64,000 nt of DNA, taken from NCBI GenBank assembly GCA_963764165.1, contig CAVXRD010000001.1, positions 480,001 through 544,000 on the forward strand. The letters run 5' to 3'. Of this stretch, positions 1,935-57,105 are shown piece by piece. The notes beneath the pieces are model-generated. The model had not been told where the DNA came from. It did no database searches and saw nothing but the letters and a program-made list of their open reading frames with translations. Position numbers and translations under genes: made by a program. Position 1 is the stretch's first letter. Every line of letters starts with the position of its first letter. This DNA comes from an uncultured Verrucomicrobiae bacterium. GTDB lineage: Bacteria; Verrucomicrobiota; Verrucomicrobiia; Limisphaerales; Palsa-1400.

Positions 1935-4900
1935 CTACTTGCCCTGCAAGCGGTAGAAATGACTTCCAGCCGCGGCGGGCACGGTCTGCTGCCAGACGCC
2001 ATTTGTCATAATGGCGGTTGTGTTGGTTACAGGGGTCCAGCTTGCGGGTGCGGCCAGACTCGTTGTCGTCTCCAGAGTGAACGCTCCATCCCCGGTCGGC
2101 CATGTAAACTCATAGCCGCCCGCGTACGGCGCGATAGTCAGGGTCGGCTGGAGATTGACCGATGAGTAACTTAAAAATGAGCTTTCATACATATTCAAAT
2201 ACGTCGTCGCAATCCAGTTGCTGGACGCAATGCCAGATTGGACACGCGCTTCGTCGATGGTGCCGTTGAAATAGAACACCGGGTCAAGGAATGCGCCCAG
2301 ATTCAGTTGGTTCGTCAATCCAAACGTCGGCACTGCTGCACCCTTGTCGTTATAGACTCCATCCACATACAGCTCAGCAATGGAGTTGACCTGATCCCAC
2401 GTGGTGGCCAGCAAATGCCACTGGGCGACCGGCACTGTTCCGGCCGCGCTAAATGGATCAGCGCCCCCGCCAGCGCCGTTGCCGCTGTCGAAGTGGACGG
2501 CGCCGTCGCTCGTGTTGTAAGTATTGACGAACAACGAGAAGCCGTTGTTGCCATAACCGCCATGCGCGTTGGCCCAGACGGTTTGAATGTTCGCGGCGGT
2601 TGCACTCAAATAAACCCACGCATACGTCGTGAATTGATTGCTGAGCGTGACAACGCCGGGTGTGATGAAGTCGGATGTCCCGTTGAAATCCTCCCCATGA
2701 CCTACAATTCCAGTCGCCTGGACTGGCGCCACGCCGTTGGTGGCCGGATATTGGCCCGTGCTATCGGCATAGGGGAACCCGCTCTCTTTCAAGTGGTAGA
2801 CAACTTCGTAATCGGCATTTAGCCAGACATTGGTGGATCCAGGGGATTCGTCGGTATCGTTAGACTTGCCCCAATACGCCCAAATGTTCGTTCCGTTGAG
2901 CACAGGCACCCGCACCCAGATCGTGGAAATGCCGTTGTTGTTCCATTCATCAATTTCGAATGGCAGAACTCCCGTCCCGCTGGCATCGGTGAATCGCAAG
3001 TCGGAGCCATTGGTTGCCAACTGCGAATAGGAAAACCCGGGGATTTCCGAGGGATTCAAGGTAATCAGCGCGGGAAAGTTGGTCAGCGGCTGGCCAGTGT
3101 ATCCCGGGAAGCCTATTCTTACGCGATACGCATAGCTGGATGGCGTCAACTGCGGAACCGGCACGCCAATTACCGTAGCGGTGCTGCTGACCGCGGGAAC
3201 GCCATTGGCTTGCGATGCCGTGGCGGAATTTGTAATCGTGACGTAGTAACTATTTGTCCCCGCCAGAGCGGTGAATGTATAGCTGGAATTGGTCGCTCCA
3301 GCCACAGCATTGCCATCGGCATACCATTGGTAGCTGAAAGGCGCCGTGCCAGAGACGATCACAGCAAAGGTGATCGAATCCAATCCAGAATACAGCTCCA
3401 CCGTCTGCTGAAGAGGCGAGATGTCCTGAACGATTTGCGGCGGCCCGAGCGCCACGCTCAAATATGGGTAATCACTCACAGTTCCATAAGCGTTCGACAC
3501 CGTGATGGTGTACTGCCCCTGTGAACTCGCCTGCACATTTGAAATCACCAGCGTGGGATTGGTGGAGACCAGATTATTATTGGGATCAAACCAACTGTAG
3601 GAGAGCGGCGCTGTCCCGGTTGCCACGACCGTGAATTCAGCAGTGGATCCGACGTTGGTCGTTTCATTTTGCGGGGTCAAAGACTCGATGATCGGCGCAA
3701 CGCCTGAGGCGAAGTAATGATTTTGAACCTGGGCCGGAGTCAGGGCATAGTTGTAAACGGCCACCTCGTCTATGGCTCCAAAAAATTGGTTGTCGTATTG
3801 CGACCCAAGACTTTCCTGGCGCGCGCCGATCGTCAACGGCTGGGTCGAAGTCAGCACGCCGCTTTTGACAGGTATGTTTCCGGTGCCCGCATTGGTTCCA
3901 TCAATATAGATATGCACATGCCCGTTTGCTTCATCGCACACTCCAACGACATGGTGCCACTCGCCGTCCGTCTGTGGCGCGAAAGTGCTAGTGGCGCTTT
4001 CGGAAGTGCCGCCGGCATCGCGAACGTAAAACCGCAGGTCGTGGGCCGGGTCGCTGCCCCCGCAATCGAGGGCGAATTCCTCGCCGCCGTTACCATAGCC
4101 GATGGAAATGATTCCGCTGTCACTAGAAACACCATATGCCTGCAGCCAGCATTCGACGGAGAACTCGGCGCTTACGTTGGTAGGCGCGGCAAAATTCACA
4201 TTGGTGGGCACCCAGCCGACGTAACTATTGTTGGCACTCACAATGCCAAATACTGGCGCCGCCCCTTCTGTCGGGTCCGTTGTGGTGTCGTAGGGGGCGG
4301 CGTCGGCCAAGGCCACATTCGTGTATATGCCATTGTATCCACCGACATAGTCAAAGGCAGTGTCGCCTGAACTTTCGTCCAGCCGCCAGAATGCCATGGG
4401 GCCATCCTCCAGCACCGCCACTGGATACGGCGCGGTGGGATCCGGCAAAATCGTCACCGTGATTGGACCCGTGGAGGTTGAACCTGCGACATTGGATGCC
4501 GTTCCGACGTAGGTGGCGCCCGCTTGAACATTCGTGATCCGATAGGTTCCATTGGTGGATACGACGACTCCGTTTGAAGTCCACGAGTAAGCAATCGGAA
4601 CGGCGCCTACCGCCCCGATCGTCAGCGACGGGCTGGATCCGGCATAGACCATGATGTTGGCTTGCGATTCATTCACGAAGGTTGGCGCTCCGTAAATGTA
4701 GACTTGAACCACCGAGCTTGTAGCGGGCGCGCCGAATCCGTTGGCGGCAACAAAATACCAGCTTCCACTGGCGTTCGTGAGCACTGAACTGTAAGACAGA
4801 ATTGCATTCGTTTGGCCAGATACGGGCACAAAGCTCGAACTGCCAGGAGCCTCCTGATACCATTGATACGAGATGGGCTGCGAACCGCCAACGATACCTG

Positions 4901-6698
4901 AAGCCGCAATCGGCGAGCCTTGATTATTTGTGACACCCACTGGCTGGACTCGAATGTAGGGCGGCACTTCAGCCGTATTGAACAGGGACTGAATTTCAGC
5001 CGCAGTCAGCGCATTTGTCCAGAAAGCCACGTGAGCCACCTGGCCGTCGAAATCACGGATAGTGTTGGCGGAACCCCAGCTTGCGTAAGTGTATTCCGAA
5101 TCCCCGCCCAGCAGTAGATCATTGACATTTCCGGCGATTTTAATGCCGTTTGTGTTCGAGGCTGTGACAGCCAGCGCCCCGTCAAGATACATATACTCGT
5201 TGGTGCCATCGCTCACACCAGCAACCATGTGCCAGTGGCCGTCATTAAAAGCCCAGCCGTTCGTGGCAACGGCAGCCGCGGTCGTGAACTGCAACTCGGG
5301 CCCCGGCCCTGGATTAAAGTGGTTTTCCGCCGCGACTTGCCCCAGCGCAAGCCGGTACGAGCTGTCGCCGTGCCCCACCATCTCTTGGAAGCGCCCAGGC
5401 GCATCGGCAATATTGCCTCGGAACCATGTGACAAGTGTCAATGGAACCGCATTGGAAGGGTTCAGGGCCGCGGGCAAACTGCCGCCTCCCACGTCCACCG
5501 CCCCAAACCAGCCGTTGATGGCGACGCTGGTGCTGGAACCGCCAAAGCCGCCGTAACCGGGACCCGCCGCGCCAGGGCTGGTGCCCGGCTGATACACGCC
5601 GTTCGCCGCCGCGCCGATCGTTCCGTAGTTTGTAGCCGCGGGAAACGTGCGGGCGGGATAGCCGGCGTTAGTTTGATAAACGGGATCGTTTAACCGATAG
5701 TAAAAGCCGGGATTATCCGCCAGAACGGACGCTGGGTAGTTTGCTCCAAACGTGGAATTTGTGCCGTAAGCCGTTTGATAGTGGTTTAGAATGCTGCTCT
5801 GTGGCAATACTTCGTTGTAGATGGCGACATCGCCTATCGTCCCCTTGAATCCGTTGCCATAGGAGGCGGAAGGTTCGCTGCCAGAACCGATCATCAGCGG
5901 CGTGCTGGGATCCGGGACAAATGGCTTGCCGTCCTTGCTTATGATGTTCAGAGTGCTTACCAGGTTGCCGTTCGTGTATAACGCTTCGGTGGTGCCATCA
6001 AAGGTCGCAACAACATGGATCCACTCGTTTAGCCCCACCCAGCCGTAAGTGTGGCTTGAGTCCAGTTCATGACCCTTGCTTTCGGCGTTGGTTCCATTGC
6101 ATATGAAAAAGAAGTAGTTTTGATAGCTTCCGAGCTCAACGCCGGACCACCCAAGCCCAGTGCCGCCGTAGAACGGATTGTTTGTGTTCGGGCCCCCGTA
6201 ATTCACCGTCGAAAAACCGCCCTGCCCAACGATATCGAACAGGCCGTTGTTCGTGCTGGCGAACTTCACCCATGCCTCTATTGAGAATGGCGGGGTCAGC
6301 GTCAAATTTGTGTTGATCGCGCCATTCGCCGTGCGAGGCACAATAACGTACTGCCCCGGCTGACCGGCGCATACCATGCCGACGCTATTATCGAACGGCG
6401 CAGTGACAGCGGGCGCCTGCGCAATGTTATTCGTAATATACCACGTCGTGCCGGACGGTTGGTACCAGGCGCCGTAATAACCGTTCGCCTGCCCGCCAAG
6501 AGTTCCGAGATTGACAGCGATATTGCTGAACGCAAAAGCAGACGGCGGAGGAACCGTTTCGTTTAAGGGCCAGTAACCAGCCGGACTCAAATTCGTTACT
6601 GCCTGAAAGTAGGGACTCGAAGGCTGGGCTTGGGCTGCCGAATTAACGGCCAGCGCCGCAATGATGGCGGCGGAACGGGTGAGCGTGTTTCTTGGCAT
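1935..6698 (-). CDS. Large secreted LamG/ConA-like + Ig-like + DUF2341 domain protein (1587 aa) with C-terminal FYRL domain
   Basis: Signal peptide; about four LamG-type blocks (WIHVVATFDG, WHMVAGVSDG, WHHVVGVCD, IDEARV); Ig I-set-like blocks (PLSYQW); DUF2341-like DLRFTD..FEIDEWN..WAYWG. Confidence 0.9.
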   Translation of the reverse strand: MPRNTLTRSAAIIAALAVNSAAQAQPSSPYFQAVTNLSPAGYWPLNETVPPPSAFAFSNIAVNLGTLGGQANGYYGAWYQPSGTTWYITNNIAQAPAVTAPFDNSVGMVCAGQPGQYVIVPRTANGAINTNLTLTPPFSIEAWVKFASTNNGLFDIVGQGGFSTVNYGGPNTNNPFYGGTGLGWSGVELGSYQNYFFFICNGTNAESKGHELDSSHTYGWVGLNEWIHVVATFDGTTEALYTNGNLVSTLNIISKDGKPFVPDPSTPLMIGSGSEPSASYGNGFKGTIGDVAIYNEVLPQSSILNHYQTAYGTNSTFGANYPASVLADNPGFYYRLNDPVYQTNAGYPARTFPAATNYGTIGAAANGVYQPGTSPGAAGPGYGGFGGSSTSVAINGWFGAVDVGGGSLPAALNPSNAVPLTLVTWFRGNIADAPGRFQEMVGHGDSSYRLALGQVAAENHFNPGPGPELQFTTAAAVATNGWAFNDGHWHMVAGVSDGTNEYMYLDGALAVTASNTNGIKIAGNVNDLLLGGDSEYTYASWGSANTIRDFDGQVAHVAFWTNALTAAEIQSLFNTAEVPPYIRVQPVGVTNNQGSPIAASGIVGGSQPISYQWYQEAPGSSSFVPVSGQTNAILSYSSVLTNASGSWYFVAANGFGAPATSSVVQVYIYGAPTFVNESQANIMVYAGSSPSLTIGAVGAVPIAYSWTSNGVVVSTNGTYRITNVQAGATYVGTASNVAGSTSTGPITVTILPDPTAPYPVAVLEDGPMAFWRLDESSGDTAFDYVGGYNGIYTNVALADAAPYDTTTDPTEGAAPVFGIVSANNSYVGWVPTNVNFAAPTNVSAEFSVECWLQAYGVSSDSGIISIGYGNGGEEFALDCGGSDPAHDLRFYVRDAGGTSESATSTFAPQTDGEWHHVVGVCDEANGHVHIYIDGTNAGTGNIPVKSGVLTSTQPLTIGARQESLGSQYDNQFFGAIDEVAVYNYALTPAQVQNHYFASGVAPIIESLTPQNETTNVGSTAEFTVVATGTAPLSYSWFDPNNNLVSTNPTLVISNVQASSQGQYTITVSNAYGTVSDYPYLSVALGPPQIVQDISPLQQTVELYSGLDSITFAVIVSGTAPFSYQWYADGNAVAGATNSSYTFTALAGTNSYYVTITNSATASQANGVPAVSSTATVIGVPVPQLTPSSYAYRVRIGFPGYTGQPLTNFPALITLNPSEIPGFSYSQLATNGSDLRFTDASGTGVLPFEIDEWNNNGISTIWVRVPVLNGTNIWAYWGKSNDTDESPGSTNVWLNADYEVVYHLKESGFPYADSTGQYPATNGVAPVQATGIVGHGEDFNGTSDFITPGVVTLSNQFTTYAWVYLSATAANIQTVWANAHGGYGNNGFSLFVNTYNTSDGAVHFDSGNGAGGGADPFSAAGTVPVAQWHLLATTWDQVNSIAELYVDGVYNDKGAAVPTFGLTNQLNLGAFLDPVFYFNGTIDEARVQSGIASSNWIATTYLNMYESSFLSYSSVNLQPTLTIAPYAGGYEFTWPTGDGAFTLETTTSLAAPASWTPVTNTTAIMTNGVWQQTVPAAAGSHFYRLQGK

Positions 6699-7065
6699 AG
6701 TGTTTGAACGTGTTGACTAAAATGCTTAATTGTATTGACACTGAGTGATTGATTCCTCTTATGACAGCTAACCTATACGATTCGATATTAAGGGTGACAA
6801 GTTAAAATAGCCGCCTGGAATTCGATTTAACCTCACCGACACAATTACCGGCATATTCCTGGCAGATGTCGTCATATAAGCTATTCCCGGGCAGCAAAGA
6901 CAATTCGTCTCAACAATACCCTGCCCGGGCATTTCTTTGCTGTGGTGCCGGAAAATCTCGCAGGTCGGGCGGGAAAAGTCCATTATATTCTTGCCTGACT
7001 CACCCTGTTTGCAGCCTAAGACTTCCCCTTACGAAGGCCTCAAGGAATTTACGAGTGGAAACAAA

Positions 7066-7647: not shown

Positions 7648-7670
7648 AATTTCAGCTGCATTGTTACGGC

Positions 7671-10600
7671 TCAGGGAGTTGAGAAAAAGTAAAAGCGATC
7701 CGGGTAATTCACAGCGTTCGTGTCAGTGAACTGCCACATGCCGCTGGCATCTATGTTGTTGTTTGTGAAAATCGGCTCCCAAAGGCTGGGTTCCGCCAGA
7801 TTGGTTGTGGCCCACAGGCGGGCGCTGCTGCCTGGCAATCCGGTCAAATTCAGCGTAATGCTTCCGTCGGAGTTCCGCGCAGGGTTGGAGAGCAATGGAG
7901 CGATTAGGGTGAGCGTGGCCACGCCGCTGGTCGCGCTGCCATAAAGATTGGTGACGGTGACCGAATAAATTCCTGCTTGCTGTACGCGAATATTCGGCAG
8001 GGTCAACGTCTCGAGGAACGGCCCTTCCACGGGGTTGGTTTGATTGAAATACCATTGGAATGAGGCCGGATACGGGCTGAGGACGCCAACGTTGAACTGC
8101 ACTGTCCCGCCGACCAGTGCGGTTTGACTCAGCGGCCCGAAGTTCGTAATAACCGGGTAGCAATTTGTCAGGACTTGGACTGTTGTTGTTTGGACGTAAG
8201 GAGAGCCGGGATTAGCGCCGGATGCCGTGGACCCAGTGTAATTATTGACGGAAACGGTAACGGTGTATGTGCCAGCCTCGCCGTATTGCTTTTCGAATAT
8301 AGTTTCGGGCTGGGTGAAAATCGAAGGCGTCGTTCCGTCGCCCCAGTCGACCGTCCCGCTCGCTGAGGTGACCGTGACCACGCCGGGATTGGGATTTACC
8401 ACCACGTCGAATGTCATCGGTTCGCCCGTGCAACCCAGATTGTTGAACGTCGCCGGAACGAAGTAAGATTGGTTGATCGTCGCCGTAGCGGCGCCGGTGG
8501 TTGTGGTTGAATGGCCGTCGAAACTGCCGCCTCCAACGAGCGGAAAGGTTCCCGAGCCGCCGGCAAGGGCGTAGCCAAAGGTGCGCGCGTGATTGTCAAA
8601 ATACGGTCCCCATTGGATGGCGCCGGTCGCTCCATTCCATAATCCGTCCGCGGAAATGGCGGTTGGCATTACGCCCGGCGGCAACACCTCGGTAACGGTA
8701 TAACAATTCACACTTCCTTGCGGTGTCGCAGCTATGGCCACAGACGGGAAAAGCGTGCCATTGCCTGACACGGTTCTGGCCAGCGAGAGCGAATTGGTGG
8801 ATAGGGCCGCATACTCTCCCACGGCGGACGAACTGGGCAGATAACCGGGCCGGAATGCCGCCACGCGCAACGTCGTTTGGGTGTAAAAGGTCAGAGCACT
8901 GGTGTAGAGCGCGCTGGTTTTCGTGGGCACCGTGCCGTCCGTTGTATAATAGATTGCGGCCTCGGGATCAGGCGATGAGATCGTCACCGTCACTGGGAGG
9001 TTGGATGCGGTGGGGGGTAAAAGAATCGGGACGGTTTCTTGCGAGGGCGCGGCGGGCACCGTGTAAGATGAGGAGGATGCAACGGTGACATTCATGATCG
9101 ACTGGCTGCTGACGCCGTCGGCGCTCAGCGTCAATTGCACCGGATAAGTTCCCGGCAGGCCCGTTCCTTGGAAACTGAGACTTTGCCCGTTGACGCCAAA
9201 GAATGGCCCCCAATAGATCGCGTTGTCGCCAGCCACGTAGCTGCCGCCGTCCGAAATGCTGGTCGCGCCCAGGCCTGCGGGCAATGTCGCCGTTACTGCA
9301 ACACAGCTCGCATTGGTCGCCGGAACAAGCCCAAGAGTCACCATTGGCGCCAACGGATTGCTGAAATTCACGCTTGCGGTGAGCGTGGCGTCGGGCGGCG
9401 CGGCTGGCGGCCCGTAAACCGCGACGCTGGCCGAACTAGGGAGGCAGTTGCTGGCAAAAGCGACCGCCCGAATCAGGCTGGCCACTGTGATCGGAAAGGG
9501 CTCGGCATAAAGGAAAGAGTTTGGCGAGCCTTGCGCGGGCAACGATCCATCCAGCGTAAAATAAATCGCGGCATTGGGTGTGGCATCGGTGATTGTGACC
9601 ACGACCGGCACATTGCTGCCGCTGCCAGGGGAAAAGACGGGCGGACTGGCCTGCGTCGGCGGCGTGGACACGCTGTTGGTTGCCTCGGCGGCAATGGTTA
9701 CGTTGGTAATGAGTTGCTCCGAACCAACGCCATCCACACTCCACGAGAATTGGACCGGGTAAGTTCCCGGCGCGCCGACCGCCTGATAACTCAACACCTG
9801 CGCGTTGGTCCCGAAAAATGGACCCCACAAAATAGCGCTGCCGTAAAGACTCCCTCCGCCAGAAATGCTCGTGGCTGACAGCCCCGGCGGCAATGTTTCC
9901 GTGACCGCCAGGCAAGCCGCGTTGGTGCCGGGCACCGCCATGATGGTGACGACTGGCGCGACGGATGCATTAGCATTGATTCCAATATCAACTTGCGCAT
10001 TCGGGAGCGCCGCCGACGGACCATAAACGGCAACACTGGCGGAACTGGGCAGGTAGTTGCTGGCAAACGCAACTGCGCGAATTAGGATCGGGGCCGTTAT
10101 GGAAACGGGATTGGTGTAGAGGATCGAGGCTGGGGAGCTTTGCGTGGGCAACGTGCCGTCCAGCGTGTAATAGATAATAGCATTGGTCACCGCGTTGGTG
10201 ATCGAAACTAGGACTGGAACATTGGAGCCGCTGCCAGGCGTGAAAACCGGCAAGGGCAGCTGCAATGGCGCTGAGGGCGCGGTGATAGGCCCCGTGGTTT
10301 CGAGAATGGTGACCAGAGTTGGGCCCGGAGAAAAGTACCAGGCGCCATCCATCCATGCTCCTCCGCTGACGGGATAACTGGCTGGCAAGCCCTTCAGGCG
10401 GTAGCTGACATTGGTGGCGGCAGTGCTGAAATAGGGCCCCCAACGAATGGCGTTGATAGCCGGCAGCCAAACGCCATCGCCGCTGACGGCGACGGCGGTG
10501 GCGGGAGCGGGAATGGTCTCTTCAATGCTAAAACACGAAACGCCCGCAACCCCCGAAACAGCAATTGTCACCAGCGGTTCGTTGGGAATGTCACTGACGA

Positions 10601-10700
10601 AGGAACGCACGTAGGAAGCCGGAGGGACATTCGTCTGCGCCGAGGCGGCCAGCGCGCTGAAGAGCGCGAGGCATAACGTGGACAGTGTGAATGTTTTCAC
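7671..10700 (-). CDS. Secreted scaffold-like protein: four WGP[YF]F beta-sandwich modules alternating with three CHB_HEX_C/Fn3-associated domains, then PKD-like, Ig-like and C-terminal FY domains
   Basis: GTG start with GAGGAGG RBS; signal peptide; repeats IYYTLDG/IYFTLDG/IYYTTDG and WGPYF/WGPFF/WGPFF/WGPYF; DWGDG PKD motif; ends TTNLAEPSLW...DRFYFFSTP. No catalytic motif seen. Confidence 0.9.
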   Translation of the reverse strand: MKTFTLSTLCLALFSALAASAQTNVPPASYVRSFVSDIPNEPLVTIAVSGVAGVSCFSIEETIPAPATAVAVSGDGVWLPAINAIRWGPYFSTAATNVSYRLKGLPASYPVSGGAWMDGAWYFSPGPTLVTILETTGPITAPSAPLQLPLPVFTPGSGSNVPVLVSITNAVTNAIIYYTLDGTLPTQSSPASILYTNPVSITAPILIRAVAFASNYLPSSASVAVYGPSAALPNAQVDIGINANASVAPVVTIMAVPGTNAACLAVTETLPPGLSATSISGGGSLYGSAILWGPFFGTNAQVLSYQAVGAPGTYPVQFSWSVDGVGSEQLITNVTIAAEATNSVSTPPTQASPPVFSPGSGSNVPVVVTITDATPNAAIYFTLDGSLPAQGSPNSFLYAEPFPITVASLIRAVAFASNCLPSSASVAVYGPPAAPPDATLTASVNFSNPLAPMVTLGLVPATNASCVAVTATLPAGLGATSISDGGSYVAGDNAIYWGPFFGVNGQSLSFQGTGLPGTYPVQLTLSADGVSSQSIMNVTVASSSSYTVPAAPSQETVPILLPPTASNLPVTVTISSPDPEAAIYYTTDGTVPTKTSALYTSALTFYTQTTLRVAAFRPGYLPSSSAVGEYAALSTNSLSLARTVSGNGTLFPSVAIAATPQGSVNCYTVTEVLPPGVMPTAISADGLWNGATGAIQWGPYFDNHARTFGYALAGGSGTFPLVGGGSFDGHSTTTTGAATATINQSYFVPATFNNLGCTGEPMTFDVVVNPNPGVVTVTSASGTVDWGDGTTPSIFTQPETIFEKQYGEAGTYTVTVSVNNYTGSTASGANPGSPYVQTTTVQVLTNCYPVITNFGPLSQTALVGGTVQFNVGVLSPYPASFQWYFNQTNPVEGPFLETLTLPNIRVQQAGIYSVTVTNLYGSATSGVATLTLIAPLLSNPARNSDGSITLNLTGLPGSSARLWATTNLAEPSLWEPIFTNNNIDASGMWQFTDTNAVNYPDRFYFFSTP

Positions 10701-10733
10701 CAGAGATCCTCCTCGTAAGAAGGTTGGAGGTTC

Positions 10734-13217
10734 TTAAGGTTGGATCTTCCAATTCACGGGACGGGTGCTGCCGTCGTTGTAATAGGCGCCCCCGTTCGTC
10801 ATCAGGAAACCAGCTCGTGTCACATAATTTGCCGGGATGGGATTCGGCGGCGCGTTGCTCCAGCCCTGGCCGCTTTTCCATGCGGCGGCGTAAGCGGCGA
10901 ATTCGCCCGCCGTGATGGTCCACGCCTGGTTGGTGTCCGCCGGATGAAACACATTGGTGGTCAATTCGTAGCAGCCCATGTCTACTGAGGCGTTGGCTAG
11001 CCGAGGATTGCCGTCAAGGTCGTTCGCGGGCAATGAGGGGGCATTTGCGGTTCCGGCGCCCCAGCAAAGCGATGTGCTCGGAAAATGGAAATCTCCGGCC
11101 ACTGGATTGAAGAATTGGGGTGAGACATCCACATTGCTCTGAGCGATGGTCCAAACCCCATACGAACTGTCGTAGTCGTTGCATTCCAGTTCGCTGGGCG
11201 AGCCGCCGCCTGTGAGATAAACGTCAGACCCCGCCCCGCTGGCGGACGAATTGCCCCAGATGATGTTATTGAAAACGTAAAACGCCTGCGTGCCGCTAGT
11301 TTGGGTGTTCTGGATGGCGAGCCCGCCGCCGCCGCCGGCGGAGGTGTTGCCGAAGAGGGTGTTGTTGATCACGTAAATCATGGACGACGCTAAGGAAGGC
11401 GCCACATAAATACCGCCTCCTTCGTAACTGGCGCCCGACTGACTATTGTTGACGATCAAGTTATCGGTGATGGTGGCATCGTCGGTATTCGCGTAAATCG
11501 CGCCCCCTCCGTAAGCGGATGAATTCCGTTGAAATGTGTTGCCGATAATGGTTGGCTCTCCCTCATCGACACAAATAGCCCCCCCCGAACCGCCGCAAGT
11601 ATTCCCTGTAAATCTATTGGCGGTGACCAGCAGCGCAGGAACGCCGTAAGCGTAAATGGCCCCGCCTTGGTTATTGCATTGATTTGCGTCAAACGAATTG
11701 TTGGAAATCGTCAACGTCGAGCCAGCCACCTCCAGCGCGCCATGATAAACGCTTGTGTTGCCCGTGAAAGTGTTCCCGCTCACAAGGCCATAATCTGCGC
11801 TAAGCTCTGCCGCACCCGGCGGGGCATAGGATGTGTTCCAAGTCGAATTGTCGAGAAAGGCATTATTTGTCACAAACAATGTCGAGGCGGATGCGCTCAA
11901 TCCGCCACCGTAAATCGAGCTGTTTTCATAAAAAGTGTTGCCCGTTATAACGGCCGTGCCTTGATAGCCCGTCGAGACAGCCGCGCCCCCAGAGTAAGTG
12001 TTCGAGGTAAACAAGTTGCTGATGAGATTGAGCGCAGCGCTGGCGGAGAGATTCGCCCCTTCAGCGTTGGCTGTCAAGACATTATTCATCACGCTAATGA
12101 AACTGGGGCCATTGGCATAGATGCCATAATCGGCATTACTCTGGGCGATCACATTCGATACGGTCAAAATCGCACTGGCGACAACGGCTAAACCGTGCCC
12201 GTAGTTCCCTGAGAAAGTTGAGTTCTCAATGACATTGGTTCCAGTCACTCCGGTGATATAAATTCCGGTTCCATCGTTGCCATTGGGTTGCTTGCCAATG
12301 GCCGTGCAGTTGGAAATCACCGTGTATAACCCCGAGGTGATTTCCAACCCCATCCCTTCGCTATTTGAGAGGACAAGGAATTGGCAGTTGGTCACAGTGA
12401 TCGTTCCGCCGCTGCTGGCGCCGATGCGCAAGGCGCCGATTTGGCTGTTTCCACAATTACGCACGAAGGTCATGCCGGAAACGGTCACGTCGCCCGAGCT
12501 TCCAGTGCAGGTGATATTGAGGTCGCGTCCCCCGGCCGCCCCATCGAGCGTAATGGCGGGATTGGTCACACTCGGCTCCGGCATCAGCGTCAAACTGGTA
12601 TTGGCGGCGCTGTTGTAGTTGAAATTGCCCGTATAATACCCGTTGGCCAGATAAATGGTGTTATTCGCTCCGTTGTTGGCCGCTTCTGTCAGCGCGTTCT
12701 GCAAGTCCTGGGCGGTGACGACGTGAATACCGGTGGACGCCTGCCACGACCCAGAATCGTCATCGTCAATTTGCCCATACACTTCCGTCCAGAACCGATT
12801 GATATGCCCGCTCCCTACAGCAGCGTCCTCGCCTAGCTCGATTACGTAATCGGTTCCTCCGTTGTTGGGCGTGTCGGTGGCTTGCACTAACATGGAGGTG
12901 ATCTGCTGAGAATTCCAGGTGAATTGGCCCGAATAAGTTGCCCACCCGTAGAACGCATCATCGCCAATCTCGGCCGAAGGATAGCTGAGCGTCCCGTTGA
13001 TGGGAGTGGTAACCTGGATGGATATGATGTCCGCGGCTGATCCACCGCCTAGAGGGGAGACTGGCGCATCGAGAATGATTTTGCCGGAGAATCCAGGCTT
13101 GCCGCCGACCCAGTCATATTCGTAGTTGCCGCCCAGCACAGGAAGGGAAGCACCAACCAGCAAAACTCCCATGGTCACTGCATGAGTTTTCCAGCGGGAA
13201 CAGGTCAATGGTTTCAT
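10734..13217 (-). CDS. Secreted right-handed beta-helix protein (Pmp-like GGAI/FxxN repeats, choice-of-anchor-Q-like block) ending in an EF-hand/dockerin-like module
   Basis: Signal peptide; repeated GGAI/GGGI and NxFxxN motifs; DLDGNPR..VDMGCYE; terminal HPADTNQAWTITAGE...PNPIPANYVTRAG. Confidence 0.88.
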   Translation of the reverse strand: MKPLTCSRWKTHAVTMGVLLVGASLPVLGGNYEYDWVGGKPGFSGKIILDAPVSPLGGGSAADIISIQVTTPINGTLSYPSAEIGDDAFYGWATYSGQFTWNSQQITSMLVQATDTPNNGGTDYVIELGEDAAVGSGHINRFWTEVYGQIDDDDSGSWQASTGIHVVTAQDLQNALTEAANNGANNTIYLANGYYTGNFNYNSAANTSLTLMPEPSVTNPAITLDGAAGGRDLNITCTGSSGDVTVSGMTFVRNCGNSQIGALRIGASSGGTITVTNCQFLVLSNSEGMGLEITSGLYTVISNCTAIGKQPNGNDGTGIYITGVTGTNVIENSTFSGNYGHGLAVVASAILTVSNVIAQSNADYGIYANGPSFISVMNNVLTANAEGANLSASAALNLISNLFTSNTYSGGAAVSTGYQGTAVITGNTFYENSSIYGGGLSASASTLFVTNNAFLDNSTWNTSYAPPGAAELSADYGLVSGNTFTGNTSVYHGALEVAGSTLTISNNSFDANQCNNQGGAIYAYGVPALLVTANRFTGNTCGGSGGAICVDEGEPTIIGNTFQRNSSAYGGGAIYANTDDATITDNLIVNNSQSGASYEGGGIYVAPSLASSMIYVINNTLFGNTSAGGGGGLAIQNTQTSGTQAFYVFNNIIWGNSSASGAGSDVYLTGGGSPSELECNDYDSSYGVWTIAQSNVDVSPQFFNPVAGDFHFPSTSLCWGAGTANAPSLPANDLDGNPRLANASVDMGCYELTTNVFHPADTNQAWTITAGEFAAYAAAWKSGQGWSNAPPNPIPANYVTRAGFLMTNGGAYYNDGSTRPVNWKIQP

Positions 13218-13252
13218 AATTCGTTGTTCGTTGAATTTGATCGGTCACTTAC

Positions 13253-34842: not shown

Positions 34843-35020
34843 AGTTGAATGCTGGTTTTGATTTGTTGATTTCCACACAGACGCGCGCCGGCACGATTTC
34901 CCCTGACACTTCGCCAAACGCTGAGACGTTTTTATCACAGTCAATCAATAATGCAACAAAAATTATTACAAAATTTTCTTGCGGTCTTTTTCCATCTTAA
35001 ATAACTTCGCAGTCAAGGTT

Positions 35021-39600: not shown

Positions 39601-40097
39601 GCTTGTTTCCCGTCCGGCTCGATGAAAAAGGTTTGGTCGCATCGCTGGAAGAATTGGCTGCCAACGCCAGCGAGGTCTACAAAATCGACTGCCGTTTCAT
39701 CGCGAACGGCCCGCCGGTGGCGGTTGAAAACGAGATCGCGCTGCACTTGTATTACATTGTGCTTGAGGCGCTGGCCAACGCGGCCAAGCACAGCAGCGCC
39801 TCCACAGTGGAAATTTCCCTGCAACCTTCCGGCGACCGCTGGCTGCTGACCATCGAGGACGATGGCGTCGGCTTTTCCCTGCCCGCGCAAAACCAGGACG
39901 GGATGGGCGTGCGGATTTTGCATTACCGCGCGCGGGTGATTGGGGCGACTTTGAACTTGCAGAGCCTGCCCGGTTCCGGCACCACCGTGACGTGCCTTTT
40001 TCTGCCCGTGTCGCGAGAATTGCCCCGCGGCGGCGCGCTTCGAGGCCAGCGCCCGGAGAGCAGCCGCGTGGACCATTCGCAACCTGAGCACGCATGA
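36681..40097 (+). CDS. Sensor histidine kinase with a large repeated extracytoplasmic region, TM helix, PAS and HisKA_3
   Basis: Signal peptide; duplicated modules; TM near aa 740; ERRYRELFENA (PAS); EQRRIGHDLHD; NAAKH, DDGVG. Confidence 0.94.
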   Translation: MKLWRHSICLAAAWLMAVSNLTAQTAATSEITSLRQLKSLTAEQAAAGPAVDVRGVVVCHDAGWHQLYIHDGRETLYFNADDFSVQPNKGDAIELTGRARGTNSLENGKLAIVGKAALPKAQPLELSELGQDHGEWVQVQGRVLSAESSRGRLALMLNEKGQNCLVYILGGAVTNNFQPWLNCRVQVRGINASRMAGGRLESGLLFAPGPDEIRILGPAGIEPSQIPVVSIRSLLNRELGSWTNQWVHINGLVVSYRRGESVTVKDPTGVIRARVIQLTEMRGDERVDVWGFLETGANETILNNSYFEVAQPPPQSIGVAAPAVPLSRVARLPSELTEVSDILQLRPEEAAQQLAVRLHGVLTYADPAWRNGFLQNNGEAIYVDIDPSQKFALPGQWVELTGRTSPGGFAPEVLSSQITVLGVTNLPTPAHVDLEDLANGRFDSHWVEMEGLVRRMDELSDHASLSLMTPKGRFKAIIPGFENKPLPTNLIDALVSVRGACTSELNVRRQLSGITLHVPSLEQIKVLEPAPADPFAIATTRIDAVETFDPDRFAGRRVKIQGVVTLRMIGQGFMVQDSSGGMRVLTRQTNELHLGDLVEVIGFPAIGDFSPYLEEAAYRVIGTGTMPVPKPVKADQILLHGTNDAQIVSIDAQLLQNVPRSANPQMVLQDGPIIFTAQLESHARQQEVPDLESGCRLRLTGICSIQGGEGHEPQAFRLLLRNPLDVQLLESPPYWTARRSFMLAGGMMLAVSATLGWVALLRRQVRQQTKVIRQKLEDEAALERRYRELFENATDMLYTHDREGRITSINQTGERLLQLPRSEVLGRNILDFLAEEQRATARQWLVRLHKGAATPNIEWDVISASGERVKLEISARVMARDGSDSELEIEGIARDVTERKRLEREIIEISNREQRRIGHDLHDGVCQQLAGIAFLISTLAEELAEEGVPQSVQAEKISVMINEAIDQTRGVARGLFPVRLDEKGLVASLEELAANASEVYKIDCRFIANGPPVAVENEIALHLYYIVLEALANAAKHSSASTVEISLQPSGDRWLLTIEDDGVGFSLPAQNQDGMGVRILHYRARVIGATLNLQSLPGSGTTVTCLFLPVSRELPRGGALRGQRPESSRVDHSQPEHA

Positions 40098-52695: not shown

Positions 52696-52827
52696 GGTGG
52701 TTTTGGTTGAAGGCACTGAGCAGTGACGGTATATACTTGGGTAAGCTATTGGGAGTTGAGCAAGGCCCAAGGAACGCAAAAAAACGATTCGACGCCCAAT
52801 GCGACTAAACTCTTCCAACGTGCTATT

Positions 52828-55800
52828 TTGAAATCCATTTATCCATTACGCGCGGCCTGCCGTCTTGCCGCGGTTCTTGCATTTTTCGTTCACGCATTTT
52901 TGTTGCAGGCGCAGCAATCCGCGCTCCAACCATTCAATTTGCACTGCGATGCGCGCACCAATCCGATGGGCATCGATGACACGACGCCGACGCTGAGCTG
53001 GCAGTTGCAAAGCGCGCAAACGGGAACCGCCTATCGCGGAATGACACAGACGGCTTACGAGGTTCAAGTCGGCTCGCAGGCCGGCGGTTCGGATTTGTGG
53101 GATAGCGGCATGGTGGCGAGTTCGGATTCGCTCCACGCCTTGTATGGGGGCAAAGCGCTGACGAACAACGAAGTTTGTTATTGGCAGGTGCGCGTTTACG
53201 ACGGCAATGGACTCTCGTCCCCTTGGAGCGCCTCGGCGCAATGGTCGATGGGCCTCATCCACCAAACCAATTGGCTCGCGCAATGGATCGGTTACGACGC
53301 CGCGTATTCCCCCACCTCGCCGCAACTCGCGCCCATCGCCACCTTCAACACCTCGGGGCTGAGCTGGGTGGGATTGCCATCCGGCACCGGCACGCCGGGA
53401 GTCAATCAAGTTTCGCTTCGCAAACAAATTGTCCTGCCCACAAATCAGACGATCACCAACGCGGTGTTTTGCGTTTACGCGGATAACTACTGCATCGCCT
53501 ACGTGAACGGCACGCGGACAACGAACGACGCCGCCCGCTGGGAAGCGACGGCGCTGATGAACGTCACCCCCCTGCTCCACGCGGGCACAAATGTCCTGGG
53601 TCTTTCCGCCACCAATTCTGACCAGGTTCCAGCCACCGTTATCGGGCAGCTCGTTGTGCAATATGCTTCGGGCGCCGTGACGAATATTCCAGTTGATGGC
53701 ACCTGGCAGGCGGCGCAATTGCCGTCGCCGACGTGGACTCAAGTTTCGTTCAACGCCTCGTCGTGGCCGAACGCGAGTGGTGGCAACGGCAATGCCTGGG
53801 GCACGCCGTCGTTGAACGATTTGCCGCGCATGCCGGCGCCGTATTTGCGCAAGGATTTCTCAGTCGGCCAAACGGTCATGCGCGCGACCGTTTTTGTCAC
53901 CGCCCTTGGAACCTACGAATTGCACCTGAATGGCCAGAAGGTTGGCAAGGACGTGCTAGCTCCCGGCTGGACGCAATTTACCAAGCGCGTCTACTACCAG
54001 ACTTACGATGTCACGAGCCTCGTGCAAGCCGGCTCAAACACAATCGGCGCGATTCTGGGTGATGGCTGGTATGCGAGCGATCTCGCCTTCAAGGGCACGC
54101 GCTGCAATTACGGCGGCGTCCCGCGTTTCATGGCGCAGCTTGTTCTCCAACTCGCCGATGGCACCCAGCAAACCATTGTCACCGACAATTCATGGAAAGC
54201 CAGCTACGGGCCAATCCAGTTCGGCGATTTGTTGATGGGCTCCAAATATGATGCGCGTCTGGAAATGCCCGGCTGGGACATGACAAACTTCGTCGACAGC
54301 GCCTGGTCGCCGGTGGCCACTGGAACTGGTGCGGCGGGATTTGGCTACACCAATGTCACGTCGCTAGTGGCGAGTTTCGTCCACAACAACACGCTCAATT
54401 TCACGGTAAACAACACAACCATGGGCGGCGATCCCGATTATGGCGTAGCCAAGGTGCTGGCCTTGACGTATTCGCTGAATGGCATAACTCAAACGGTTCA
54501 ATATGCGGAAAACACTGCGATCTCGCTCGGCGGCAGCGGGCAAACGCTGGTGGTTCTCAGCGCATACTACGGCGGCCCGAATTCCATTCCCGGCAACGGC
54601 GGTTTTCTAATCACCGGCGCCATTACCGAACCGTCCCGCTGTTTTGAGAATATTCCTGCCACGAACATGACCCAGCCAGCGGCGGGATGTTACACGTTTG
54701 ATCTCGGCCAGAACATCGCAGGCTGGGCGCGCATCACCGTTTCCGGGAACGCCGGCGACATCATCACAGTGCGCCACGGCGAAATGCTCAATCCGGGCGG
54801 GCTCATTTACACGGCAAATCTTCGCGGGGCGGAGGCGACGGATACCTACATTCTTTCCAGCAATGGCGTTTCGACGTTCGAGCCGCGCTTCACTTTCCAC
54901 GGATTCCGCTATGTGGAAATCCGCGGTCTTTCGACGCCGCCGACGGTCGCTGCCGTAACTGGGGTGGTTGTTCATTCGGATATGGCGCCGACCGGCAGTT
55001 TCCAGAGTTCCAGCCCGCTGCTAAATCATCTTTACAGCAACATTGTTTGGAGCCACAAAGGAAATTACCTCGAAGTCCCGACCGATTGCCCGCAGCGCGA
55101 CGAGCGCATGGGTTGGACGGGTGACACGGAATTCTTTATCCCGACGGCGGCCTACAACTTCGACATTCAATCGTTTTTCCGCCGCCACATGCTAACGTAT
55201 GACGAAGACAGCATCTACGCTAATGGCTCAATGCCGAACGTTGCCCCGGACCTCAGTGTCGGGACGGCCGGCATCGCATGGAGCGACGCCAGTTGGATTT
55301 GCCCCGACACGATTTATCGCGCATATGGCGACACCAACATCATCGCCGACAACTACGCCGCGATGCAAAGTTACGGCGCGTATCTTTCAAACTACACCTC
55401 GGGCTATACTTTGCCGAGCACGCCCGGTGATTTGGGCGATTGGCTAAACCTCGGCGGGGCGGCTTCAGAACAGGTCATTGACACGGCATTCTATGCCGGT
55501 TACGCGCAAGCGATGTCGGAAATGGCCGGAGCCATCGGGCGCACGAATGACGCCGTTATGTATGCGACGCTGCACAGCAATATCGCCAACGCCTTCGGCA
55601 GTTTCTTCAATTCCAGCGGCGCTTTTTCCGACGGCAGCAGCCAGACGGGTTACGCGCTGGCTTACACCTTCGGCTTGGTTCCCACCAACCTTGCCTCGAA
55701 AATCTCGCAGCAATTTGCGAATTCCATTGCTTCCTACGATTACCATCTGGCGACGGGTTTTATTGGAACGCCGCGGCTTCTGCCGGCCCTGCATCTCGCG

Positions 55801-57105
55801 GGATTGGATAACTTGGCCTACACCGTTTTGCTCCAGCAAACGTATCCGTCGTGGCTCTACCAGGTGACGCTTGGCGCGACAACCATGTGGGAGCGTTGGG
55901 ACGGCTGGACGCCTGCGGCGGGATTTGAGACGCAGACGATGAATTCGTTCAACCACTATTCCTTTGGCGCTGTCGGGCAATATCTCTACGATGCGGTGGG
56001 AGGAATTTCTTCCACCAGCCCAGGATACAAAACGATCCAAATCGCGCCGATACCAGGGAACGGGCTGACATGGGCAGCCACCAGCTACGACTCGGCGCGC
56101 GGAATGATTTCGACGGCGTGGACGAATTTCGGCGGGGAATTAAATCTCGCCGTGACGATCCCGCCAAACACCACGGCGCAAGTCTTGGTGCCGACGATCA
56201 ACACCAACGGCGTCACCGAAAGCGGGATGCCCGCGGGTTCGTCGCCGGGCGTCGCGTATCTTGGCTATTCCAATGGCGCGGCGATGTATGCCGTCGGTTC
56301 GGGAAATTATTTCTTTGTTGCGCCGCAGCAAATCCAGGTGAGCGCGACCGAGACGGACGCCGTCTACGCGGGCGGCAGTTTTCCGCCTTTGCATCCCGGC
56401 GATCTGATCACCAACTCCTCGACAACGGTTGTTTCAAACCAACTCGCGCTCGGCCCGGAAAACGAATTTCCTTACACATACCTGCGCGATGGAAAAATCG
56501 GCGCGCCGAACACGACAAATTACAGCGTTGAAATCAGCGGCGGCTACATCACGTATAATCTCGGTGCAGGTCCCTCAAACGCGGGCTACACCATAACCAA
56601 TCTTACGACTTACACGGCCTGGCGCGACAACGGCCGCGAAGATGCCAATTACAGCGTCCTTTGGTCGCCGGATGGTTCAAATTATTTCACTGCTGCCACA
56701 GTTTCGTATAACCCGTCGCCTTATCCCACTACCAACGGCACGGGCGGCACTGTCACGTCGCTGGCGATGGCGAACTTGACGGGCGTTCGCTATCTCACCT
56801 GGAATTTCTCCGCGGGCCAGCAAAACGGCGGCGTCGGGTATACAGAACTCGCGGCTTACGGCGTTCCAACAGTGCCGTTGCAGCCAGCCACGATCAGCGC
56901 GGCCATGTCGCCCTCGGGAGGGACATTCGTGATGTCGGCCAGCGGGCTTTCCACCGGGCAGACATACGTGCTGCAAGCGACAACGAACCTCGCCAACCCA
57001 TCGTGGGTGGCGCAAACAAATTTCGTCGCGACCCAGGCTTCGATGACAATCACCAATTCCACCAGCGCCAGTTCGCAAATGTTCTACCGGTTGGTCGGCT
57101 ATTGA
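52828..57105 (+). CDS. Modular alpha-L-rhamnosidase, GH78, with CBM67-like and lectin-like inserts, an extra C-terminal domain and a FYRL domain
   Basis: PTDCPQRDERMGW, FTFHGFRY, GATTMWERW, MNSFNHY; TTG at 52828 gives a normal signal peptide (ORF track starts at 52723). Confidence 0.94.
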   Translation: MKSIYPLRAACRLAAVLAFFVHAFLLQAQQSALQPFNLHCDARTNPMGIDDTTPTLSWQLQSAQTGTAYRGMTQTAYEVQVGSQAGGSDLWDSGMVASSDSLHALYGGKALTNNEVCYWQVRVYDGNGLSSPWSASAQWSMGLIHQTNWLAQWIGYDAAYSPTSPQLAPIATFNTSGLSWVGLPSGTGTPGVNQVSLRKQIVLPTNQTITNAVFCVYADNYCIAYVNGTRTTNDAARWEATALMNVTPLLHAGTNVLGLSATNSDQVPATVIGQLVVQYASGAVTNIPVDGTWQAAQLPSPTWTQVSFNASSWPNASGGNGNAWGTPSLNDLPRMPAPYLRKDFSVGQTVMRATVFVTALGTYELHLNGQKVGKDVLAPGWTQFTKRVYYQTYDVTSLVQAGSNTIGAILGDGWYASDLAFKGTRCNYGGVPRFMAQLVLQLADGTQQTIVTDNSWKASYGPIQFGDLLMGSKYDARLEMPGWDMTNFVDSAWSPVATGTGAAGFGYTNVTSLVASFVHNNTLNFTVNNTTMGGDPDYGVAKVLALTYSLNGITQTVQYAENTAISLGGSGQTLVVLSAYYGGPNSIPGNGGFLITGAITEPSRCFENIPATNMTQPAAGCYTFDLGQNIAGWARITVSGNAGDIITVRHGEMLNPGGLIYTANLRGAEATDTYILSSNGVSTFEPRFTFHGFRYVEIRGLSTPPTVAAVTGVVVHSDMAPTGSFQSSSPLLNHLYSNIVWSHKGNYLEVPTDCPQRDERMGWTGDTEFFIPTAAYNFDIQSFFRRHMLTYDEDSIYANGSMPNVAPDLSVGTAGIAWSDASWICPDTIYRAYGDTNIIADNYAAMQSYGAYLSNYTSGYTLPSTPGDLGDWLNLGGAASEQVIDTAFYAGYAQAMSEMAGAIGRTNDAVMYATLHSNIANAFGSFFNSSGAFSDGSSQTGYALAYTFGLVPTNLASKISQQFANSIASYDYHLATGFIGTPRLLPALHLAGLDNLAYTVLLQQTYPSWLYQVTLGATTMWERWDGWTPAAGFETQTMNSFNHYSFGAVGQYLYDAVGGISSTSPGYKTIQIAPIPGNGLTWAATSYDSARGMISTAWTNFGGELNLAVTIPPNTTAQVLVPTINTNGVTESGMPAGSSPGVAYLGYSNGAAMYAVGSGNYFFVAPQQIQVSATETDAVYAGGSFPPLHPGDLITNSSTTVVSNQLALGPENEFPYTYLRDGKIGAPNTTNYSVEISGGYITYNLGAGPSNAGYTITNLTTYTAWRDNGREDANYSVLWSPDGSNYFTAATVSYNPSPYPTTNGTGGTVTSLAMANLTGVRYLTWNFSAGQQNGGVGYTELAAYGVPTVPLQPATISAAMSPSGGTFVMSASGLSTGQTYVLQATTNLANPSWVAQTNFVATQASMTITNSTSASSQMFYRLVGY

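Follow-up and report, generated by a model that had tools for sequence, protein, structure and literature searches.

N-glycosylation by PglB in Campylobacter follows the sequon D/E-X-N-X-S/T, with Pro forbidden beside the Asn, and employs a phosphoglycosyltransferase, GT-B enzymes, and a GT-C transferase. In actinobacterial O-mannosylation, GT-C enzymes of the protein O-mannosyltransferase (PMT) type act at the membrane on Ser and Thr of Sec substrates, coupled to Sec export, and we know of no sequon for this system. The general O-glycosylation of the Bacteroidota, with proven glycans, is directed by D-(S/T)-(A/I/L/V/M/T) with a slight preference for Ser; according to a 2025 review, it is the only bacterial O-glycosylation known with a sequon, and its transferase is undiscovered (PMC12871550). 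For human TMEM260, two preprints describe a GT-C core, a luminal alpha/beta domain and tetratricopeptide (TPR) repeats, and a sequon-guided activity with Thr as acceptor and Ser tolerated (bioRxiv 10.64898/2026.03.17.711096, 10.64898/2026.09.21.753134), the Thr being glycosylated within the sequon on extended, unfolded chains (bioRxiv 10.64898/2026.03.17.711096). Here, the dipeptide Thr-Asn (TN) is considered, which in a stretch of 64,000 nucleotides (the window; contig C1, 480001-544000) of an uncultured Verrucomicrobiae bacterium of the order Limisphaerales exceeds the reverse dipeptide Asn-Thr (NT) in exported proteins and which a sequence-only reading of the window had taken for a candidate glycosylation sequon. 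TN followed by any residue and a nonpolar one is selected for in Sec-exported sequence and against in the passengers of two-partner secretion (TpsA); this trait is restricted to a clade and co-distributed with a gene that encodes a GT-C/TPR protein and lies in an operon for glycan assembly.

The genome holding the window (G000; genomes, contigs, loci, and families are designated by G, C, L, and f) comprises 7.0 Mb with 57% G+C on 5 contigs and is 97% complete. The closest labelled relatives of its AroA, at 62-70% identity, belong to metagenome-assembled genomes (MAGs) labelled Limisphaerales, Pedosphaera, and Verrucomicrobia subdivision 3. Its 4672 genes were called by a simple codon-usage score and sorted into export classes by a crude rule based on signal peptide and hydrophobic segments, which gave 1062 signal-peptide proteins without further membrane segments. 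Misclassification due to this rough calling and sorting blurs contrasts and does not create them. Triplets of the form a/b/c denote throughout TN seen, NT seen, and TN expected from each protein's own composition, and ratios refer to the signal-peptide proteins of this genome unless stated otherwise.

The 1062 signal-peptide proteins sum up to 4672/1753/2174. When composition-corrected dipeptide odds are compared genome-wide between exported and cytoplasmic proteins, as proposed in the sequence-only reading, TN reaches 2.14 vs 0.99; in the signal-peptide proteins it ranks first among the 400 dipeptides, followed by QW with 1.50, and NT stands at 0.79. TN is likewise the most asymmetric of all dipeptides (4573 vs 1683), and considering single proteins it outnumbers NT in 609 and falls behind it in 165. 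The effect is confined to T directly preceding N, with values of about 1 for T-x-N and wider gaps, of 0.97 for SN, and of at most 1.14 for each other x-N and T-x. An excess of 1.9-2.25 is found across all classes of T+N content, and the ratio amounts to 0.96-1.03 in the 2286 cytoplasmic-type proteins (no signal peptide, ordinary composition). A single amplified domain motif is ruled out as the cause, since the excess occurs at nearly every neighbour in positions -1 and +1 and in all composition classes. In 80-kb samples of unbiased genomes, no other dipeptide stood out as marking exported proteins. Besides the TN excess, smaller effects of residue order were observed as a depletion of TQ (0.68), though not of QT (QT 1348 vs TQ 866), and of NK (0.66). 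A 2644-aa cytoplasmic kinase (aa, amino acids) shows the reverse asymmetry, which probably stems from its repeat (Table 1).

The excess depends on the adjacent residues. It is about 3.0 for TN-x-P/V/I/F, 1.4 for TN-x-G, 1.1 for TN-x-N, and 0.7 for both TN-x-K and TN-x-R; TNP reaches 1.07, and H or N preceding the T abolishes the excess (1.1 and 1.3, respectively). The four-residue motif TN[^P][AVILFMWP] attains 2.76 in signal-peptide proteins vs 1.10 in cytoplasmic proteins and is present in 607 of the former. The extension to [ST]-N, which had been considered in the sequence-only reading, holds weakly for SN[^P][nonpolar] (1.25 vs 1.01 in cytoplasmic proteins) but not for SN as a whole. Known sequons are not enriched, with values in signal-peptide vs cytoplasmic proteins of 0.86 vs 0.97 for the Bacteroidota sequon D[ST][AILVMT], of 1.08 vs 1.02 for N[^P][ST], and of 0.97 vs 0.81 for [DE]xNx[ST].

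The limitation of the bias to extracytoplasmic sequence, claimed from the window, extends to the sensor kinases of the whole genome, of which the periplasmic parts are biased and the cytoplasmic parts are not. In case of the histidine kinase-like proteins with two membrane helices, 52/10/22.3 was found between the helices and 22/17/19.6 in the tail, or 45/10/20.6 and 12/11/14.9, respectively, after removal of a single exported giant whose second helix is spurious. An initial version of this topology test had given a tail ratio of 1.73, inflated by giant exported proteins that bear a hydrophobic stretch. The export route matters as well: 50 proteins with a strict twin-arginine (Tat) signal show 31/43/40.4 (ratio 0.77), whereas 280 Sec proteins of matching size and composition show 434/191/225 (ratio 1.93), and the probability of so few TN in the Tat proteins at the Sec rate is 1e-11. 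The strict pattern replaced a loose one (ratio 2.22), which had captured Sec giants. Due to the excess in Sec and its absence from Tat proteins, those that enter the periplasm folded do not carry the mark.

The opposite behaviour was observed for TpsA. At least 6 TN are expected in 151 proteins of the genome, 13 of which have a TN/expected ratio below 1.2, among them a cytoplasmic protein resembling nonribosomal peptide synthetases, a HAMP-repeat kinase, and a flagellar cap-like protein (8/3/9.7). The most extreme cases turned out to be the only two proteins of the genome with a TPS domain (PF05860, E 1e-22 and 2e-20; Table 1), with a pooled P = 2e-19. TpsA of five other genomes of the order contain 2/17/31.5, so that order-wide 3 TN are seen vs 78 expected. 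For 27 N-terminal parts of TpsA from other orders the triplet is 68/103/132, and TpsA are near expectation in f13, f5, f4, f75, f86, and f88. Due to TN counts seen/expected of 9/8.1, 6/6.6, 6/5.1, and 7/6.9 in several unbiased families, the TPS fold evidently tolerates TN. TpsA proteins are unfolded in the periplasm and then threaded through the narrow outer-membrane barrel of TpsB. Presumably, selection would act in these proteins against any motif that draws in a bulky adduct or a tightly binding partner. As far as the literature searched shows, a near-total purge of this kind is a new type of evidence for a periplasmic consequence of a motif. TN-avoiding TpsA loci outside the order comprise L302-L305 of f78 and L301, L309, L312, L315, L316, L320, L321, and L326 of f77.

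Among the genes of the window, many code for exported carbohydrate-active and LamG/Ig/PKD proteins; sensor kinases and some housekeeping functions are encoded as well. All TN and NT counts given for its proteins in the sequence-only reading were reproduced, and the expectation from their own composition was added (Table 1). Pooling yields 119/37/56.4 for 12 exported-type genes (binomial p = 3e-11) and 9/5/4.8 for 8 cytoplasmic genes. The open reading frame (ORF) 32494-34944(-) contains 18 TN and one NT at full length, reduced to 17/1 by the likely start at 34842. In the kinase 36681-40097(+), the second membrane helix comprises residues 743-761, and all 7 TN are located upstream of it and none in the cytoplasmic part, just as had been noticed; the cytoplasmic CheB-CheR kinase, also regarded as unbiased before, remained so in the recount (TN 2, NT 4, expected 2.4). 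Regarding the two GH78 paralogues, four of five contrasts reported earlier are seen in the alignment, where the first paralogue bears DN, KR, GD, and DN at TN positions of the second, but the column of the fifth has too few aligned rows. The earlier caveat that the GH20 protein and the first GH78 paralogue lack the bias is right as to the counts, but with expectations of less than 1 and of 2.7 it is weak evidence either way. Beyond these two, the exported beta-helix protein 10734-13217(-) is unbiased. If it were an autotransporter-like passenger, its missing TN excess would match the pattern of TpsA.

TN sites are conserved individually. In orthologues of the 1587-aa protein from two genomes of the same genus, 26 of 35 TN pairs and 2 of 9 NT pairs are kept (G201, 61% identity), and 22 of 28 and 2 of 7, respectively (G203, 69% identity). 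The G201 orthologue retains 80% of T within TN vs 52% of other T, and 89% of N within TN vs 56% of other N. For the LamG protein 32494-34842, TN exceeds NT in 120 of 120 homologues among the matches listed (1754/271/602), with SN as the commonest substitute at lost TN sites in these same homologues. In an AlphaFold2 model of this protein (54-row alignment, pLDDT 88), 10 of the 17 TN sites scored by secondary structure are predicted as coil-coil and 5 lie where strand and loop meet; of the remaining two, one is at the end of a helix and the other inside a strand. Strand-strand pairs make up 33% of all positions. With 15 of 17 sites in loops or at strand/loop borders, the model agrees at the level of secondary structure with the surface loops anticipated in the sequence-only reading.

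The distribution of the bias across lineages was assessed in 80-160 kb of each genome, sampled at random or anchored on hits, with TN/expected computed over all ORFs. Within the same family, values (TN:NT) of 1.82 (133:71) in G207, 1.81 (146:87) in G218, and 1.51 (95:49) in G204 were obtained. Other families of the order gave 2.47 (112:36) in G240, 1.87 (144:63) in G296, 1.86 (54:19) in G237, 1.51 (81:35) in G270, 1.34 (120:78) in G249, 1.33 (56:45) in G302, 1.30 (138:81) in G307, and 1.29 (49:27) in G228; in the signal-peptide subsets of the biased genomes, the ratio lies between 1.36 and 2.94. In other orders of the class, ratios of 0.80 (G254), 0.85 (G267), 0.93 (G304), 0.93 (G153), 1.00 (G054), 1.05 (G256), 1.06 (G060), 0.72 (G063), 0.78 (G081), and 1.29 (G275) were found, and in other classes 0.70 (G166), 0.78 (G163), 0.99 (G197), and 1.10 (G023). 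Around aroA, 59 subdivision-3 loci show 809/459/565 and 20 loci of other phyla 178/153/171. Hence, the TN bias separates the order from other orders clearly on average, though not perfectly. G278 of another order (f80) was rejected as a biased genome, since its ratio of 1.84 is due to one 4984-aa protein (40:9) and the remainder is 20:18. This protein, encoded in an otherwise unbiased genome (Table 1), may have been acquired from a TN-using lineage.

The same picture emerges from homologous folds. LamG_3 proteins show 191/54/85 in the same family, 64/19/32 in other families of the order, and 99/82/77 in other orders of the class, and 28 GH78 homologues from other, unbiased families of the phylum show 21/62/54, bearing AD, AG, TR, PE, AS, and similar small or polar pairs at the TN sites of the second GH78 paralogue. 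A recurrence of the TN/NT ratio in LamG and GH78 homologues elsewhere, named in the sequence-only reading as the observation that would speak against it, is thus not what these counts display. The claim of lineage specificity is borne out by the genomes of the order and by the absence of the bias from the samples of other orders and from their homologous domains.

Considering possible enzymes, no match to an oligosaccharyltransferase of the STT3/PglB type (PF02516) was found in G000 (97% complete), while 8 Wzy_C and 14 PMT_2 matches occur (Pfam). TMEM260-like proteins (PF11028) are represented by a 1304-aa protein with TPR repeats, which matches human TMEM260 (PDB 9rql) with E 2e-15, and by a 493-aa paralogue. 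The latter consists of the membrane part only and reads LEQSG where the full-length protein has LEDSGE, which may mean that this copy is inactive or truncated. PF11028 as such was discarded as a marker of the trait due to its presence in the unbiased families f73, f74, f75, f77, f78, f80, f83, and f13, so that only a divergent branch of about 1000 aa tracks the trait. G000 contains two members of this branch, of 982 and 1060 aa, both located outside the window (Table 1). At a threshold of E <= 1e-10, homologues of the 982-aa protein were detected in 13 of 14 genomes of the order and in 0 of 106 genomes of other orders in a sample of the class, and in 192 of 201 genomes in a sample of the order. 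Except for one f69 genome, the misses of the latter belong to f71 (0/6) and f56 (0/2), and in G311 of f71 (95% complete) no homologue of the 982-aa family was found even at E 0.001. An 80-kb sample of G311 shows 29/44/54.3 (0.53), with 5/14/13.1 and 5/10/14.4 in two signal-peptide giants, and for f56 (G232 and G364, 80 kb) the triplets are 44/37/37.7 (1.17) in total and 18/10/12.8 in the signal-peptide subset. The families without the gene are the families without a clear TN excess, a match that is suggestive only because it represents one or two evolutionary events.

AlphaFold2 models the 982-aa protein (51 homologues, pLDDT 88) with membrane helices at residues 31-450, an alpha/beta domain at 457-566, and TPR-type helices at 579-981; TPR matches in Pfam cover 700-963. 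Aligned with VIA-align, residues 22-614 of the model resemble Pmt4 (Z 17.6, 325 residues aligned, root-mean-square deviation 5.3), Pmt1/2 (Z 17.4), ALG12 (16.3), AftB (15.9), and ArnT (15.8). The protein is thus modelled as a GT-C membrane fold with a soluble domain and TPR repeats C-terminal to it. PF11028 is matched by orthologues from 12 genomes of the order with 1e-6 to 1e-10, and precomputed PF11028 annotations are present on most of the 120 homologues among the matches listed, some of which are named DUF2723 by NCBI. A search with the model in Foldseek returned TPR proteins only, as did phmmer and the 51-homologue profile against PDB sequences among the matches listed. The first extracytoplasmic loop of the family contains a nearly invariant D65 in 'GWDW'. 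In G000, a TRAM/tRNA-methyltransferase-like gene precedes the 982-aa gene. Two genes follow the latter with overlapping or abutting ends, one for a GT-B glycosyltransferase (Glycos_transf_1) and the other for a polyprenol-phosphate phosphoglycosyltransferase resembling WecA (Glycos_transf_4). The same four genes occur in the same order in G237, and the arrangement was found in 2 of 3 genomes examined.

A YfhO-like GT-C protein encoded in the window was set aside as a candidate. Five biased genomes (G212, G270, G240, G296, and G302) yielded no homologue, and weak ones occur in the unbiased f78, so that its distribution does not follow the TN bias. It has paralogues elsewhere in G000 (Table 1), and tandem arrays of two or three such genes are present in the relatives G307, G239, and G283.

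Table 1. Location of the features discussed, in window positions or as contig coordinates of G000 unless another genome is named; counts are TN/NT/TN expected
Feature	Location	Strand	Counts	Remarks
Exported 1587-aa LamG/Ig/DUF2341 protein, TN-rich	1935..6698	-	36/9/11.6	Poisson 7e-9; Laminin_G_3, Ig_3 (Pfam)
Exported 1009-aa CHB_HEX_C/Fn3_assoc/PKD/Ig protein, TN-rich	7671..10700	-	18/0/6.6	Domains from Pfam
Exported beta-helix protein, no bias (exception)	10734..13217	-	7/13/7.7	Beta_helix, NosD, faint Chlam_PMP repeat
Cytoplasmic CheB-CheR-PAS-GAF kinase, control	21515..25882	+	2/4/2.4	
Exported Kelch/Big protein, asymmetry without excess	28419..31349	+	8/1/7.0	
Exported 782-aa double-LamG/Ig protein, TN-rich	32494..34842	-	17/1/4.9	
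GH20 hexosaminidase, uninformative exception	34979..36670	+	0/0/0.7	
Histidine kinase, periplasmic sensor part (residues 1-742)	36681..38906	+	TN 7, NT 0	TN at residues 102-642
Same kinase, cytoplasmic PAS/HisKA_3/HATPase part, internal control	38964..40097	+	TN 0, NT 0	Domains from Pfam
First GH78 paralogue, no bias	42196..45132	-	1/2/2.7	
Second GH78 paralogue, alpha-L-rhamnosidase, TN-rich	52723..57105	+	24/8/9.8	
YfhO-like GT-C membrane protein, set aside	57314..59614	-		Weak PF09586 match
YfhO-like paralogues	C1:856411-858597; C2:2226462-2228672			37-38% identity among the three
Candidate GT-C/TPR protein, 982 aa	C2:413416-416364			Divergent branch
Second member of the branch, 1060 aa	C2:776801-779983			
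TMEM260-like protein, 1304 aa	C4:588331-592245			Canonical paralogue
TMEM260-like protein, 493 aa	C1:270583-272064			L254
GT-C/TPR gene in pieces, G207	G207 C1:5188502-5191376			Stops between pieces
GT-C/TPR gene in pieces, G218	G218 C1:200776-203723			Stops between pieces
TpsA, 2434 aa	C2:2478957-2486261		0/33/34.4	ShlB + POTRA_2 transporter gene directly downstream
TpsA, 1533 aa	C2:2197306-2201907		1/10/12.4	
HAMP-repeat kinase, 2644 aa	C4:671571-679505		TN 4, NT 23	L296; 17 HAMP repeats, three receiver domains
TN-rich 4984-aa protein, G278	G278 C4:1-20000, ORF 1490-16445	-	40/9/14	L291

Besides these genes, a stretch of about 50 nt at about 7599-7649 of the window, between the features ending at 6698 and beginning at 7671, has copies of 82-94% identity at dozens of places, in both orientations and in 3 of 4 genomes of the same genus searched (G202, G203, and G204). 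By its sequence, it looks like a dispersed intergenic repeat or a small RNA element.

Taking these observations together, we consider it rather probable that TN, at its best T-N-(not Pro)-(nonpolar), is the sequon of a periplasmic protein modification, most probably glycosylation, on unfolded Sec-exported chains. Of the glycosylation sequon proposed in the sequence-only reading, selection, extracytoplasmic confinement, lineage specificity, and independence of fold are upheld, while the chemistry of the glycan and the choice between Thr and Asn as its acceptor are what we infer. In the proposed mechanism, the GT-C/TPR membrane enzyme, a divergent DUF2723/TMEM260-like protein encoded at C2:413416-416364, would read the TN motif on unfolded Sec chains and transfer a sugar or short glycan to its Thr, Asn being the less likely acceptor. 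For Thr speak the replacements of T by S, the PMT/TMEM260-like fold, and the precedent of TMEM260, which acts on Thr in a sequon of unfolded chains. The genes directly downstream, for the WecA-like phosphoglycosyltransferase and the GT-B transferase, would provide the enzymes that assemble the glycan on a polyprenol carrier. Selection would retain TN in surface loops of most exported proteins and remove it from two-partner-secretion passengers, in which a bulky adduct would block passage. It is tempting to speculate, although we would give the full scenario somewhat less than an even chance, that nearly all Sec proteins, as they emerge unfolded, receive a WecA-started glycan at T-N-x-nonpolar from a clade-specific GT-C/TPR enzyme of the TMEM260 lineage, that this glycan is bulky enough for TpsA to have purged the motif, and that the order possesses a second, independent sequon-directed system of general protein glycosylation in bacteria.

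Several observations do not fit easily into this interpretation, the support for which consists of sequence statistics throughout. Exported proteins without TN excess exist, namely the beta-helix protein, the first GH78 paralogue, and a 3774-aa LamG giant (8/9/10.7). The strength varies within the order from 1.29 to 2.47 over all ORFs, and the weakest biased genomes (G228 with 1.29, G307 with 1.30, and G249 with 1.34) overlap the unbiased G275 (1.29) in these small samples of 80-160 kb. TpsA of f78 (0 seen/14.9 expected) and f77 (7/37.3) avoid TN, yet neither a TN excess nor the 982-aa family is found there, which may be explained by close kinship among these TpsA or by a related TN-reading activity. 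The link to the enzyme is based on one gain and on one or two families without the gene, a distribution that many other genes must share. Moreover, the 982-aa copy of G000 yields TPR matches only and none to PF11028 at E 0.01, its alignment to the canonical TMEM260-like paralogue by hhalign covers the TPR part only with a probability of 19%, and no acid is present in its family at the place aligned to the acidic residue of the canonical first loop (LEDSGE). In G270, the two transferase genes are missing downstream of the 982-aa gene and a GT2 gene is situated upstream. In the strongly biased G207 and G218 the GT-C/TPR gene is in pieces, due to either an assembly error in long-read MAGs or real decay. 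Finally, glycans made with a WecA-type initiator are linked through pyrophosphate, while the mannose used by PMT and TMEM260 is linked through monophosphate.

Among the rival explanations, a DNA-level or codon-pair effect such as mutation bias or motif avoidance is very improbable. A slight excess of the hexamer ACNAAY over AAYACN is indeed observed in the five other frames (1.09-1.27) and between genes (1.29), but the ratio in frame is 2.17, and every Thr and Asn codon contributes to the TN excess, ACT-AAY excepted. The effect follows protein compartment and export route, both of which are invisible to DNA processes, so that a cause at this level is refuted as the main one and the TN excess is a protein-level effect. 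A structural preference, with T ending a strand and N starting a turn, magnified through the abundance of beta-sandwich domains in the exported proteins of this lineage, would agree with TN at strand ends and in loops, with the mildly hydrophobic upstream positions, and with the 'V-T-N' motifs present in F-strands of Ig type. It is nevertheless improbable and largely refuted: homologous LamG, GH78, and TPS domains of other orders lack TN>NT, TpsA have nearly no TN, Tat-exported and cytoplasmic proteins of the same cell are unbiased, and the excess is equal across composition classes and nearly all contexts.

A binding motif accounts for the contrast of Sec and Tat, the neighbour rules, and the avoidance in TpsA equally well. 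TN-x-nonpolar would then be gripped by a lineage-specific periplasmic chaperone, holdase, or quality-control factor on unfolded Sec substrates, and TpsA would avoid TN because they would otherwise be held back. The factor in question could be the TPR arm of the 982-aa protein, in line with the long TPR domain of the G000 copy and its lack of a recognisable acidic first-loop motif. However, a chaperone site need neither lie in surface loops of the folded protein nor be retained site by site to 74-79% at 61-69% identity, and the 982-aa protein has a full GT-C fold in its model and an operon with two enzymes of sugar transfer; we regard both the binding motif and the role of the TPR arm in it as unlikely. 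Slightly less likely still appears another covalent change, either a non-sugar group on Thr (a phospho-form or acyl) or a change of Asn (an N-glycan independent of STT3, hydroxylation, or a deamidation-based link). As with N-X-S/T sequons, Pro is disfavoured after N; the N-oligosaccharyltransferase pathway includes a WecA-type initiator and a GT-C enzyme; and the N of TN is kept better than the T. On the other hand, STT3/PglB was not found in G000 and N-X-S/T is not enriched there, T is mostly replaced by S, and structurally the candidate comes closest to protein O-mannosyltransferases.

Glycosylation at TN, if true, would be a second bacterial sequon-directed O-glycosylation of a whole exported proteome, with a different and very short motif, and would give bacterial DUF2723/TMEM260-like proteins a first function. 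The glycoproteomes of abundant soil and freshwater Verrucomicrobia would become predictable from sequence, and a four-residue tag would be available for glycoengineering. The case has clean controls within one genome (Sec/Tat, topology, and TpsA avoidance), and a named candidate enzyme and operon make it directly testable. In the literature searched, no paper was found on a Verrucomicrobia sequon or on bacterial DUF2723, and a single one, on human TMEM260, mentions DUF2723 at all.

With the Campylobacter PglB system, the proposed one would share the periplasmic, sequon-directed type, the set of phosphoglycosyltransferase, GT-B, and GT-C enzymes, and the lack of Pro next to Asn, but G000 has no STT3 family protein and no enrichment of the PglB sequon (0.97). 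The actinobacterial system is approached through the predicted fold, PMTs being the best structural matches of the 982-aa candidate. The predicted domain order of GT-C, alpha/beta, and TPR is that reported for human TMEM260 (bioRxiv 10.64898/2026.03.17.711096). This O-mannosyltransferase of IPT domains uses a long, domain-specific sequon (P-x..-G-G-x-x-T) on few substrates, unlike the two to four residues found proteome-wide here. The candidate furthermore belongs to a divergent branch, and a pyrophosphate-linked glycan, not polyprenol-phosphate-mannose, is what its operon points to. Going by the review, the Bacteroidota differ in phylum and motif, with D[ST][AILVMT] at 0.86 in G000, in their slight preference for Ser as compared to the strong one for Thr in our case, and in having proven glycans where the present argument is statistical. 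There are common features as well, namely a short sequon with a downstream hydrophobic residue, its restriction to non-cytoplasmic proteins, and a large exported share (here 607 of 1062). In both cases the trait is phylum- or order-wide, and for the transferase, undiscovered in the Bacteroidota, a candidate can be named in the Verrucomicrobiae.

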